DNA of 5,378 bases, taken from positions 1 through 5,378 of IMG/VR virus record IMGVR_UViG_2671180921_000005, one strand, 5' to 3'. This DNA is from a virus. Its lineage: Duplodnaviria > Heunggongvirae > Uroviricota > Caudoviricetes. Below, piece by piece: positions 1,101 to 5,305 of the stretch. The translations under genes were made by a program, and so were the position numbers. The stretch's first letter is position 1. The number at the start of each line of letters is the position of its first letter. The notes under the pieces were generated by a model. That model saw nothing but the letters and a program-made list of their open reading frames with translations, was not told where the DNA came from and ran no database searches.

Positions 1101-1159
1101 TTGACGCGATGATTTATTTGGGGCTATATTCCTCACGCGCCAGCAAAATCTGGCGTCGG

Positions 1160-1170
1160 GATTAGGAACC
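1160..1170 (+). repeat. Copy 1 of the 11-bp motif GATTAGGAACC (core TTAGGAAC)
   Basis: Exact 11-mer gattaggaacc at 1160-1170, identical to 1326-1336. An inverted copy of the core (gttcctaa) is at 1295-1302. Confidence 0.6.
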
Positions 1171-1192
1171 CCGGATAGAGACCGCGACAGAC

Positions 1193-1216
1193 ACACGCCG
1201 CGAGCGTGTTTTTTAT
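1193..1216 (+). terminator. Candidate rho-independent terminator downstream of ninE
   Basis: acacgc (1193-1198), loop cgcga, gcgtgt (1204-1209) form a 6-bp stem, followed by ttttt-a-tt. The stem is short, so confidence is moderate. Confidence 0.5.
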
Positions 1217-1294
1217 TGTCGTATGCACGCGCACATCTGAATTATGGTGGGGCGTATGGGGGAGCTGAAAAGCTCGCCGGTTGGTTTCCCGGTA

Positions 1295-1336
1295 GTTCCT
1301 AACCCTGTACGTCTCACCACCCGATGATTAGGAACC
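1295..1336. promoter_or_regulatory. Inverted repeat GTTCCTAA-N26-TTAGGAAC immediately upstream of the ORF6N gene; candidate operator or protein-binding site
   Basis: gttcctaa at 1295-1302 is the reverse complement of ttaggaac at 1329-1336. The right arm is part of the exact 11-mer also present at 1160-1170. It lies 40-80 bp upstream of the GTG start at 1378. Confidence 0.4.
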
Positions 1337-1377
1337 TGACGGTGGTGATAGTTTAGAAACCACTCGAGGGCGTCATT

Positions 1378-4588: not shown

Positions 4589-5305
4589 ATGAGGGATGGT
4601 GCACTGCTCAGGAGTTCTTCACTTTTTATAGCCTACATGGGATGCCTTGGATGGGGAAGTGCTTATTTCTATGGCTGGGGTACTTCTTTTTACTACGGAT
4701 TCCCATGGTGGATTGTAGGTGCAGGTGTTGATGATGTTGCCAGAAGTTTATTTTTTGCAGTTATCGTCATTGCTATATTTCTTATCGGTTGGGGTATTGG
4801 TGTTGTATTCTTTTTCGCTGTGAAAAGAAAACATTCTATGCAGGAGCTAAATGTATTTCGCCTTTATTTTGCTGTGGAATTATTGTTTGTGCCGGCAATT
4901 ATTGAGTTTTCTATATTGAGACAGAAGATTCAGGTACCTCTTTTGCTACTGTCAGCAGCGATTGCGCTGGCAGTTACAATTTCGATAAGATCTTATGGGC
5001 GATTTTTATCGGTATCATGCTTCTATGGTAAGCCATTTATAAAAAAACATATTTTTGAAGTTGTGATGGTTGCTTTTGTGGCATATTTCTGGCTCTTCTC
5101 ATTTCTGACAGGATATTACAAACCTCAGTTTAAGAAAGAATATGAAATGATTAATTATAATGATGCTTGGTATTATGTTCTTGCTCGTTATGATAATTGT
5201 CTGGTTTTGTCTACTTCTTTTAATGCAGGTAGTAAGAGGTTTGTCATTTATCAATCAGCACAAGACAAGAATCTTCAGGTTGATATTGTAAGGACCAGAA
5301 TTTAA
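4589..5305 (+). CDS. Hypothetical multi-pass inner-membrane protein (about 238 aa; 4-5 predicted TM helices plus ~55-aa C-terminal soluble tail), AT-rich moron cargo downstream of Q/pR'
   Basis: Long ORF in a strongly AT-rich segment, ending at TAA 5303-5305. Start placed at ATG 4589 with a good SD (AGGTGG at 4581-4586, 2-nt gap before the ATG); the ORF-track start at GTG 4547 and ATG 4562 lack an SD. Hydrophobic stretches: SLFIAYMGCLGWGSAYFYGWG, LFFAVIVIAIFLIGWGIGVVFFFAV, LYFAVELLFVPAIIEFSIL, VPLLLLSAAIALAVTISI, IFEVVMVAFVAYFWLFSFLTGYY. No family recognised. The segment has no long ORF on the opposite strand. Confidence 0.6.
   Translation: MRDGALLRSSSLFIAYMGCLGWGSAYFYGWGTSFYYGFPWWIVGAGVDDVARSLFFAVIVIAIFLIGWGIGVVFFFAVKRKHSMQELNVFRLYFAVELLFVPAIIEFSILRQKIQVPLLLLSAAIALAVTISIRSYGRFLSVSCFYGKPFIKKHIFEVVMVAFVAYFWLFSFLTGYYKPQFKKEYEMINYNDAWYYVLARYDNCLVLSTSFNAGSKRFVIYQSAQDKNLQVDIVRTRI

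Follow-up and report, generated by a model that had tools for sequence, protein, structure and literature searches.

A gap between ninE and an antirepressor-type gene very probably holds a P1/P7 immI-type (C4) antisense-RNA control module

What occupies the 277-bp gap between ninE and the next gene of this phage, and why does it carry the same short motif three times? The locus lies in a window of 5,378 nucleotides, the whole stretch of DNA analysed here (IMG/VR record IMGVR_UViG_2671180921_000005, Caudoviricetes). The gap is bounded by ninE (Pfam NinE), which ends at 1100, and by a gene that begins with GTG at 1378, and an ORF scan of 1101–1377 returned no plus-strand reading frame of at least 30 amino acids. 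The first-pass annotation, which was made from the letters alone, was right to call this joint non-coding. On the opposite strand, a mechanically called ORF of 107 amino acids (1213–1536) runs antisense to the antirepressor start. The exact 11-mer GATTAGGAACC occurs at 1160–1170 and again at 1326–1336, and an inverted 8-mer copy of its core, GTTCCTAA, at 1295–1302, as had been reported. The distal inverted repeat described upstream of the ORF6N start is likewise present, except that 25 nt, and not the claimed 26, separate the inverted copy from TTAGGAAC at 1328–1335. An exact direct repeat of at least 11 nt arose in 29 of 5,000 dinucleotide shuffles of the 277 bp, against an earlier rough estimate of well under 5% for two identical 11-mers, and an 8-mer present twice in direct and once in inverted orientation arose in 31 of 5,000. 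Over both strands of the window the 8-mer has four copies against 0.14 expected, a number reached in none of 200 shuffles. A tRNA-like T-arm reading of GGTTCCTAATCC was considered and dropped; a tRNA/tmRNA scan gave nothing. The gap also contains a second complementary trio that had been overlooked, consisting of GAGACC (1178–1183), TGGTTTC (1282–1288) and GAAACCA (1356–1362).

Comparison with RNA family models identifies the element. Three Rfam families score above their gathering thresholds, in the immI order of c4-a1b1/isrK followed by C4 (Table 1), and this order is also found in P1, in Gifsy-1 and in 11 other phage loci. Taken as a whole, the gap very probably constitutes a complete, self-contained antisense-RNA control module of the P1/P7 immI (C4) type, as in the IsrK system of the Salmonella prophage Gifsy-1. 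In P1 nomenclature, the three motif copies correspond to a1, a' and a2, and the second trio to b1, b' and b2. The earlier view of the interval as a regulatory module at a mosaic joint, acting on the gene at 1378 and not mere filler, is thus upheld, and the stem-loop and terminator that had been noted in it belong to the module.

Table 1. Features of the interval between ninE and the antirepressor-type gene, in window positions
Feature	Position	Strand	Basis and remarks
sigma-70 promoter-like site	1101..1130	+	TTGACG 1101-1106, 18 nt, TATATT 1125-1130; 10/12 matches
c4-a1b1 (RF03163)	1124..1177	+	Rfam, 47.8 bits (gathering 46.7)
IsrK-type leader/small RNA	1137..1214	+	Rfam isrK RF01394, 69.4 bits (gathering 50)
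a1 target TTAGGAAC	1162..1169	+	9-nt loop of hairpin 2; matches annotated P1 a1; covaries with a'
b1 target GAGACC	1178..1183	+	pairs with GGUUUC of C4 hairpin-2 loop, one G-U
C4 antisense RNA	1240..1324	+	Rfam RF01695, 67.0 bits (gathering 45), E 6.6e-12, full model 1-87
b' TGGTTTC	1282..1288	+	C4 hairpin-2 loop, stem 1276-1280 / 1289-1293; P1 equivalent CACTAAC, complementary to annotated P1 b1/b2
a' GTTCCTAA (RNA GUUCCUAA)	1295..1302	+	unpaired C4 multiloop; P1 equivalent CTGTCAA
alternative hairpin (predicted)	1314..1348	+	C4 closing-helix 3' strand TCACCACC 1314-1321 pairs with GGTGGTGA 1341-1348
a2 target TTAGGAAC	1328..1335	+	4 nt past Rfam C4 match, 7 nt past predicted mature 3' end
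b2 target GAAACCA	1356..1362	+	3 nt upstream of Shine-Dalgarno GAGGG 1366-1370 (gene GTG 1378)
antirepressor-type gene, 226 aa	1378..2058	+	Pfam ORF6N 2e-21 (N-terminal), P22_AR_C 3e-23 (C-terminal)

The module opens with a promoter-like site, also missed in the first pass, whose -35 hexamer directly follows the ninE stop codon. Its TTGACG-18-TATATT arrangement ends 6 nt before the predicted transcription start at about 1137 and is the predicted own promoter of the IsrK-like RNA (in silico). A hexamer pair stands at the equivalent place upstream of isrK in 11 displayed phage loci and in Gifsy-1, where the promoter geometry is the same as in the window and the published IsrK numbering (PMC4825925) places +1 seven nucleotides past TATATT. 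In the leader, hairpin 1 (1137–1156) is followed by hairpin 2 (1157–1173), whose loop contains a1; then come a single-stranded linker in which b1 lies and an intrinsic terminator, which a terminator scan located at 1193–1209 plus a U-run. The stem-loop said to abut the first repeat proved one pair longer than described (1137–1143 / 1150–1156), and the terminator claimed at 1193–1216 is a hairpin at 1193–1209 followed by a T-run to about 1216. The b1 pairing is weak, with 6 bp including one G-U and a value of -5.7 kcal/mol. In the minimum free energy (MFE) structure of the whole read-through RNA, 1178–1183 pairs with 1283–1288, so that both b1:b' and a1:a' (1162–1169 / 1295–1302) are paired in cis.

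The C4 segment has the architecture of its family, a long closing helix around two inner hairpins, and its MFE structure equals the family consensus, with a' and b' both unpaired. The fold reaches -42.9 kcal/mol on the plus strand (z -4.5) against -28.8 kcal/mol on the minus strand, and compensatory (double) changes are seen at 13 of the 27 consensus pairs in 15 homologues. By analogy with the ends of C4 given in the P1 record, the mature RNA is predicted to span about 1246–1321, from GGU at 1246 to CCACC at 1317–1321. Counted along the predicted transcript, the motif copies lie at about +26, +159 and +192, and all occupy unpaired RNA positions: a1 in the hairpin-2 loop of the IsrK-type RNA, a' in the C4 multiloop and a2 4–7 nt past C4.

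Beyond C4, the placement of a2 is that of the annotated a2 of P1, which begins 4 nt past C4. The duplex between a' (1295–1302) and a2 (1328–1335) comprises 8 bp, and that between b' (1282–1288) and b2 (1356–1362) 7 bp. The alternative hairpin predicted at 1314–1348 would, as long as the transcript is unprocessed, expose a2 in its loop, and its helix is conserved and co-varying (GCCACC/GGTGGC) in homologues. In most homologues, b2 ends 6–16 nt short of the start codon; the start region is overlapped in eight, and b2 takes in the Shine-Dalgarno sequence or the ATG in several modules. Whereas b2 of P1 overlaps the icd ribosome site, that of the window abuts the Shine-Dalgarno sequence from 3 nt upstream, which makes ribosome occlusion plausible but not obvious. 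The downstream gene is of the antirepressor type, and its counterpart is labelled antirepressor in the annotation of homologous loci. Its N-terminal 118 amino acids, covering the ORF6N domain, are 72% identical to Gifsy-1 AnrP/STM2616, whereas the C-terminal domains differ. The repressor that the antirepressor would target, together with the operator sequence, lies outside the window. The sole ORF that begins in C4 (1244–1327) is 27 codons long and ends 51 nt short of GTG 1378, whereas its 45-codon equivalent in Gifsy-1 overlaps the anrP start (AUGA); an ORF of the icd or orf45 kind, coupled to the start of the antirepressor gene, is absent from the window.

The complementarities are retained across related phages. 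A set of 98 non-identical homologous modules, in which a' is of 12 types and a'/b' of 48 combinations, was assembled from phage records and IMG/VR, and cognate and non-cognate pairs were scored for exact complementarity over at least 7 nt. Every a2 was complementary to its cognate a' (98/98, against 18/6880 non-cognate pairs), as was a1 in 86/98 (against 33/6880). For the b elements, cognate complementarity to b' was found in 91/98 modules at b2 and 65/98 at b1, against 304/9078 and 279/9078 non-cognate pairs, respectively. Throughout the 98 modules, the inverted copy remains complementary to the direct copies while the sequence itself varies over the 12 types. The variety seen amounts to at least 35 b' loop sequences, at least 12 a types and at least 48 combinations. 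As a gauge of selection at the RNA as against the DNA level, G-U and A-C mismatches were compared; overall they balance (9 vs 9), with 8 of the 9 A-C mismatches at a1, where most duplexes share a constant mismatch next to the element. In the b elements the tally is 9 G-U to 1 A-C.

Among the closest known systems is the immI region of P1 and P7, in which C4 controls icd-ant. P1 shares with the window the order of promoter, hairpin, a1 in the hairpin loop, b1, terminator-like hairpin, C4, a2, b2 and antirepressor operon. The P1 record annotates a1, b1, C4, a2 and b2 at equivalent relative positions and labels the sites as C4 RNA targets; inspection of the P1 sequence shows the hairpin loop to be b' and a multiloop segment to be a'. 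The two C4 RNAs agree in fold, in the placement of b' (hairpin-2 loop) and a' (multiloop), and in their 5' GGU and 3' CCACC. The a and b sequences are specificity determinants in P1 as in the window, and such elements, co-varying with their targets, underlie P1/P7 heteroimmunity; the codes themselves differ (TTGACAG and GTTAGTG in P1). There are further differences. P1 has icd, an upstream ORF that is the direct target at translation and to which expression of ant is coupled; icd characterizes the P1 operon and not the RNA family. The window lacks it and carries its targets directly before the antirepressor gene, which encodes ORF6N and P22AR_C domains in place of Ant1/2 of P1. The leader of the window has a strong intrinsic terminator and scores 69 bits with the isrK model against 35 bits in P1, and its setting is the nin region of a lambdoid prophage, whereas P1 is a plasmid prophage. 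In P1, the repressor operator Op51/Oc4 overlaps one c4 promoter, whereas a C1-type operator is not evident in the window.

By analogy with the P1 and Gifsy-1 experiments, C4 likely prevents the antirepressor from being translated, with the a1/b1 leader (IsrK) as a likely competitor for C4. Pairing of C4 with a2/b2 was shown genetically in P1/P7 (Citron & Schuster 1990). C4 is processed by RNase P from a precursor to about 77 nt, its b' occludes the ribosome site and its a' confers specificity (PMC5320573), and full repression of ant needs C4 (PMC8198154). Transferred to the window, events would begin at the constitutive-looking promoter at 1101–1130, which, judging from its sequence and its homologues, would fire with a start near 1137. 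As shown in Gifsy-1, most transcripts would end at the terminator (1193–1214) and yield an RNA of about 78 nt with a1 TTAGGAAC and b1 GAGACC, and read-through RNA would extend across C4 (about 1246–1321) into the antirepressor gene. C4 would be excised from this precursor, a step that RNase P carries out in P1. In its predicted fold, which agrees with the family model, it would present b' UGGUUUC unpaired in a hairpin loop and a' GUUCCUAA unpaired in the multiloop. These elements have the potential to pair with a2 (1328–1335) and b2 (1356–1362) just upstream of the antirepressor ribosome-binding site, and this pairing, on the P1 precedent, would stop translation of the antirepressor and spare the prophage repressor. 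The a1/b1 leader is of the same sense as a2/b2 and so a potential competitor for a'/b'; it would act in cis while the precursor is still unprocessed, and in trans in the form of the short IsrK-like RNA. A rise in the short RNA would, as in Gifsy-1, lift repression, allow the antirepressor to be made and move the prophage towards induction. The a and b sequences would serve as an address code that renders each module specific to its own phage. Since no icd-like or orf45-like coupled ORF is present, neither the Rho-dependent polarity of P1 nor the translational coupling of Gifsy-1 can be transferred as such.

The Gifsy-1 module is homologous to that of the window and has the same arrangement (isrK 79 bits, C4 69 bits), although its codes differ (a = TTGGCGT, b = ATCACCG) and it lies between Q (antQ) and anrP, whereas the window module lies between ninE and the antirepressor gene, upstream of Q. 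Compensatory mutation pairs have been published for it, namely G28-C162 and G31-C159 (Hershko-Shalev et al. 2016, PMC4825925, Table 1D). Counted on the Gifsy-1 sequence, they fall exactly in a1 TTGGCGT (nt 26–32) : a' ACGCCAA (nt 158–164); the equivalent positions of the window lie within a1:a' (1162–1169 / 1295–1302). Salmonella contains a stable processed RNA, STnc1160/orf45', of about 80 nt (PMC4825925), which coincides with the Rfam C4 match in Gifsy-1. What is named orf45/STnc1160 in Gifsy-1 is a C4 RNA, and the pairing published for IsrK is that between a1 and a' in the P1 system. The Gifsy-1 paper (PMC4825925) mentions neither C4 nor P1 and calls the C4 part orf45/STnc1160, and the connection between IsrK and C4 is absent both from it and from a phage-sRNA review. 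A BLAST search with the Yersinia module matched 12 Salmonella records; Gifsy-1 was not among the matches listed.

In Gifsy-1, translation of anrP rises about 140-fold when IsrK is supplied in trans, and the prophage is induced by AnrP (PMC4825925). The authors of these experiments interpreted them as riboregulation by IsrK. On such an account, the C4-like fold would be a part of the mRNA leader, which IsrK opens as the sole trans regulator to activate translation, and there would be no processed C4 repressor acting on a2/b2. The MFE structure of the window read-through RNA, in which a1/b1 pair with a'/b' in cis, agrees with this account and resembles 'structure A' of Gifsy-1. Moreover, constitutive STnc1160, the C4 equivalent, did not block the IsrK effect or prevent IsrK-mediated growth arrest (PMC4825925), which fits poorly with a simple model of C4 as trans repressor and IsrK as its sponge. 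We nevertheless consider the account unlikely. The a1/b1 elements of IsrK are in the same sense as a2/b2 and cannot pair with them, so that C4 alone can do so, yet complementarity of a2/b2 to a'/b' has been kept in 98/98 and 91/98 modules, a pattern that requires selection for pairing between C4 and a2/b2. The stable processed RNA of Salmonella (PMC4825925) also speaks against the account, and the window is without the orf45–anrP stop/start overlap that the Gifsy-1 coupling model needs.

A far less probable explanation is the one favored in the first-pass annotation, in which the motif copies are operators bound by a DNA-binding protein, possibly the ORF6N or the Rha-type protein, and control the promoter of the gene at 1378. 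The repeats are indeed non-random, and two direct copies and one inverted copy can be read as operator half-sites. Operators would also co-vary with a protein whose DNA-binding specificity drifts, so the covariation of three copies does not by itself discriminate between the two explanations. The layout does not suit operators, however, since the only promoter-like site in the gap (1101–1130) lies upstream of all copies and none is found near the distal pair; all three copies lie within the predicted transcript, in unpaired RNA segments, the inverted one inside a conserved fold supported by covariation. The unrelated trio b1/b'/b2 behaves alike, its distal copy follows the position of the ribosome site or the start codon, and the mismatches at the b sites are G-U rather than A-C (9 vs 1). 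Furthermore, the RNA module is constant while the downstream proteins vary (ORF6N/P22AR_C, Bro-N, Icd/Ant and proteins of about 120 amino acids), and the published RNA-level compensatory mutations lie at exactly these positions in Gifsy-1 (PMC4825925). The region aligns to a known and differently explained element (immI/C4), an outcome that the annotation itself had named as telling against its proposal. Least credible of all is a filler or decayed gene remnant with chance repeats, or a gap that encodes a small protein: hypothetical ORFs are annotated there (VT2-Sakai orf34, phi349 833–1072, PhiR12_2 867–1040), Gifsy-1 orf45 is translatable (PMC4825925) and the frame from the AUG in C4 enters the downstream gene in 48/98 modules, but this frame has just 27 codons in the window, ORF length differs between modules, from 8 to over 64 codons, the Gifsy-1 authors saw conserved nucleotides with variable amino acids (PMC4825925), and three covariance models above threshold together with helix covariation support an RNA.

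Antisense-RNA modules of the immI type are also recognizable in the record of APSE-2 (Hamiltonella phage, LR794152), which annotates an 'isrK family sRNA', a 'C4 antisense family sRNA', a' and b', the last two with labels swapped relative to P1. APSE-2 shares the three-part module followed by an antirepressor-like gene and then a Rha-type gene, which is the gene order of the window. Sequence identity to the window is about 70%, whereas the codes (TTGAGAC and GATTATC) and the downstream protein (Bro-N) differ. The CI RNA of P4 is likewise a processed antisense RNA located between two complementary target copies (seqA/seqC), an analogy drawn by the Gifsy-1 authors (PMC4825925), but it acts by terminating transcription of replication genes and not by keeping an antirepressor from being translated. 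P22 sar does block antirepressor (ant) translation as an antisense RNA, but it is transcribed from the opposite strand, as a true cis-antisense RNA, and shares no homology.

The element is thus real, of an already described kind and common, and it will not surprise a specialist in phage RNA. The module was found in 686/5426 complete E. coli genomes, and the best six RefSeq matches carry no RNA feature annotation at it. In several phage records, the module is covered by spurious 'hypothetical protein' ORFs. From the viewpoint of annotation, the gap accommodates two RNA genes that had gone unannotated, as well as the region that controls an antirepressor. The module would govern whether the antirepressor is on or off and hence prophage induction, Shiga-toxin phages included, and the a/b code would predict which prophages can cross-regulate. 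We further propose, tentatively and as rather less than an even prospect, that IsrK of Gifsy-1 and C4 immI of P1 form one three-element circuit, composed of a decoy (a1/b1), a processed antisense RNA (a'/b') and an mRNA target (a2/b2), in which IsrK titrates C4. If this is true, IsrK would be an anti-antisense RNA, and the address elements would have been shuffled combinatorially among lambdoid, P1-like, APSE and Yersinia phages. Such shuffling of codes would insulate, or selectively cross-wire, the induction of co-resident prophages. In some phages, up to three modules stand in tandem, each with a code of its own, and these arrays could be multi-specific immunity or anti-immunity devices.

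The 277-bp non-coding joint between ninE and the ORF6N/P22AR_C antirepressor-type gene very probably constitutes a C4-type antisense-RNA module controlling that gene. An Rfam scan of the window, with the curated gathering scores as thresholds, returned three matches in this gap; each is on the + strand and exceeds its gathering score (table). The predicted + strand fold of the C4 region reproduces the consensus of the C4 family (RF01695), in which a long closing helix encloses two inner hairpins, with a folding energy of -42.9 kcal/mol (z -4.5) versus -28.8 kcal/mol on the - strand, and compensatory changes were found in 13 of the 27 helix pairs. Two segments are left unpaired, the loop of hairpin 2 (UUGGUUUC) and a multiloop segment (AGUUCCUAA).

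Elements of the C4-type module and neighboring sites (window coordinates)
Feature	Position	Strand	Remarks
Promoter-like site TTGACG-18-TATATT	1101-1130		ends 6 nt upstream of isrK match
c4-a1b1	1124-1177	+	47.8 bits, gathering 46.7
isrK	1137-1214	+	69.4 bits, gathering 50
a1	1162-1169
b1, GAGACC	1178-1183		pairs through one G-U
C4 antisense RNA	1240-1324	+	67 bits, gathering 45
b'	1282-1288
a'	1295-1302
a2	1328-1335
b2, GAAACCA	1356-1362		3 nt upstream of SD GAGGG, 16 nt upstream of GTG 1378

The layout matches that annotated in the phage P1 record, which runs from promoters P2c4 and P1c4 through the target sites a1 (TTGACAG) and b1 (GTTAGTGC), C4 (77 nt), a2 and b2 to icd and ant1/2, with a2 starting 4 nt past C4. 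In the P1 sequence, b' corresponds to the loop of hairpin 2 (CACTAAC) and a' to the multiloop segment (CTGTCAA); these are the C4 elements complementary to the target sites. Given this layout and assignment, the sites of the window were named in P1 nomenclature. Rfam likewise recovers C4 and c4-a1b1 in P1, plus isrK below threshold. In the APSE-2 record (LR794152, 2635-2656) the two labels are swapped relative to what the P1 annotation (NC_005856, 256-460) implies, with a' assigned to the hairpin loop and b' to the multiloop segment; in P1 the loop pairs with b1/b2. P1 b2 is annotated as overlapping the icd ribosome site, whereas b2 of the window abuts the SD; the window has neither icd nor a coupling ORF such as the orf45 of the Salmonella prophage Gifsy-1. 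Both differences count as evidence against the C4 reading.

According to the literature, C4 is excised from its precursor by RNase P, b' occludes the ribosome site and a' confers specificity (PMC5320573), and full ant repression in P1 needs C4 (PMC8198154). In Gifsy-1, isrK (79 bits) and C4 (69 bits) are located between Q and the antirepressor-like STM2616/anrP, and the AnrP protein is 72% identical to the window protein over the ORF6N domain. Gifsy-1 nucleotides were numbered from IsrK +1 and set against the positions reported by Hershko-Shalev et al. 2016 (PMC4825925), a paper that names neither C4 nor P1. The mutated G28 and G31 fall in a1 (TTGGCGT, nt 26-32), and C162 and C159 in a' (ACGCCAA, nt 158-164); therefore, the compensatory pairings reported there, G28-C162 and G31-C159, are a1:a' base pairs. 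Both orf45 AUGs (nt 107 and 119) map to the 5' side of the closing helix of C4, and the ~80-nt processed STnc1160/orf45' coincides with C4. Gifsy-1 orf45/STnc1160 is a C4 antisense RNA (NC_010392 34131-34316, minus strand; Rfam 69 bits).

In that prophage, transcription from the isrK promoter partially reads through into anrP, IsrK, the short leader RNA, boosts anrP translation about 140-fold when supplied in trans, the prophage is induced by AnrP, and the IsrK effect persisted under constitutive STnc1160 (PMC4825925). This last result is hard to square with a simple picture of C4 as a trans repressor titrated by IsrK. Because the sense of a1/b1 is that of a2/b2, a leader or IsrK RNA could compete only for a'/b', and it would act as a competitor for these elements of C4. 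The minimum-free-energy fold of the full read-through RNA of the window pairs a1:a' and b1:b' in cis, resembling "structure A" of the Gifsy-1 study. An IsrK-only model, in which C4 does not act on a2/b2, is unlikely: it leaves the lasting complementarity of a2/b2 to a'/b' unexplained, because IsrK shares the sense of a2/b2.

An alternative helix joins TCACCACC (1314-1321), on the 3' side of the closing stem of C4, to GGTGGTGA (1341-1348), and is predicted to place a2 in a hairpin loop of the unprocessed transcript; the full read-through fold also contains it. This helix is conserved and co-varies among homologues (GCCACC/GGTGGC), and P1 has an equivalent (CCTGC/GCAGG). The b2 region, GTTTAGAAACC (1351-1361), and the a-site 11-mer GATTAGGAACC share 82% identity, so the a and b codes resemble each other in this phage, and by sequence a' could pair with the b2 region through one A-C mismatch.

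A BLAST search with the gap retrieved 311 phage records at 70-99% identity. Eleven diverse loci were compared (Stx phages, PhiR12/PhiR5 phages, PA28, Yersinia vB_YpM_41 and APSE-2); isrK is followed by C4 in all 11, and in 8 the module lies upstream of an annotated antirepressor gene or, in APSE-2, a Bro-N gene. The flanks vary, the module following ninE or HigBA/RelE-type toxin-antitoxin pairs or sitting beside replication genes, which indicates that it moves as a cassette together with its own gene. A further 120 loci came from IMG/VR, scanned for a pattern of the conserved 5' half of C4. The pooled set comprised 98 non-identical modules, among which 12 a' types and 48 a'/b' combinations were distinguished; the code of the window recurs in four other IMG/VR loci. 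C4 elements match their own targets and not those of other modules: exact complements of at least 7 nt were found for a2 in 98/98 cognate versus 18/6880 non-cognate comparisons, for a1 in 86/98 versus 33/6880, for b2 in 91/98 versus 304/9078, and for b1 in 65/98 versus 279/9078. Every a type has a perfect a2 in the duplex list. In most modules b2 ends 6-16 nt upstream of the start codon, and several b2 sites include the SD or ATG. In L038 (IMGVR_UViG_2671181028_000005, 9709-11209), the isrK+C4 module occurs three times in tandem every 656 nt, with an a'/b' code that differs between the copies, and locus L085 (4805-5499) matches the C4 pattern twice at that same interval; such arrays may serve in multi-specific immunity or anti-immunity.

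The first-pass annotation had reported an 11-mer, GATTAGGAACC, at 1160-1170 and 1326-1336 with an inverted copy, GTTCCTAA, at 1295-1302, and these coordinates are exact; its stem-loop and terminator are also present, at 1137-1156 and at 1193-1209 followed by a T-run. Its view that the repeats exceed chance agrees with dinucleotide shuffles, in which an exact repeat of at least 11 nt arose in 29/5000 and an 8-mer twice direct and once inverted in 31/5000; the window holds four 8-mer copies versus 0.14 expected. It saw the a trio and overlooked the b trio. The fourth copy, GTTCCTAA on the + strand within ninB (212-219), in the sense of a', is probably a chance occurrence and no target of C4. Of the two direct copies, the first falls within the 9-nt loop of hairpin 2 of IsrK and the second starts 4 nt past the C4 match; the inverted copy is included in the multiloop segment. 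The proposal that the copies are protein operators is therefore very improbable: all sites lie downstream of the only promoter-like site and occupy unpaired parts of a covariation-supported RNA, the b trio tracks the ribosome site, the RNA stays constant while the downstream proteins vary, and RNA-level compensatory genetics exists for these positions. Coding sequence or filler is also very improbable, given a variable ORF and three covariance-model matches.

In the window, an AUG on the 5' side of the C4 helix opens an ORF of 27 codons (1244-1327). In 48 of the 98 modules, the equivalent ORF meets no stop codon within the 120 nt after C4 that were examined and extends past the predicted start of the next gene, against a rough chance estimate of about 4% that ignores kinship among modules. 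Such long frames lead gene callers to annotate ORFs through isrK/C4, as in VT2-Sakai orf34, L009 (BCI50227) and L011 (Ant, 612-1634).

By Pfam domains, the window is a lambdoid nin region, with NinB, a Dam-type methylase and NinE (918-1100) before the gap and ORF6N + P22AR_C (1378-2058), Rha + KilAC, YbcO, RusA, NinH and Q after it. A strong intrinsic terminator (2075-2096, AAACCCAGC-TTCG-GCTGGGTTT plus a T-run) between the antirepressor and Rha/KilAC genes occupies the position of isrJ in Gifsy-1, and no isrJ match was found in the window. Downstream of Q, at the position of cargo in Stx phages, an ORF of ~238 aa (4589-5305), AT-rich and hydrophobic by eye, gave no Pfam match.

The isrK and c4-a1b1 matches overlap in the window, P1, Gifsy-1 and 8 of the 11 other loci (E ≤ 0.01; some c4-a1b1 matches below gathering). 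Rfam keeps RF01394 (isrK) outside the C4 clan CL00128 despite its overlap with RF03163 (c4-a1b1), and its name "Hfq binding" is at odds with Hfq-independent action (PMC4825925). The element is already known: it falls within curated Rfam families, and its mechanism had been established in P1/P7 and, under another name, in Gifsy-1. It is also widespread: with 1101-1400 as the query, the module was present at a coverage of at least 80% in 686 of 5426 complete E. coli genomes. Both RNAs are already annotated in APSE-2. Among the best six of the 686 E. coli matches, no RNA feature was annotated, only the neighboring antirepressor CDS. It is worth noting that orf45/STnc1160 and C4 are one and the same, and the module is a real, functionally important element that is commonly left unannotated.
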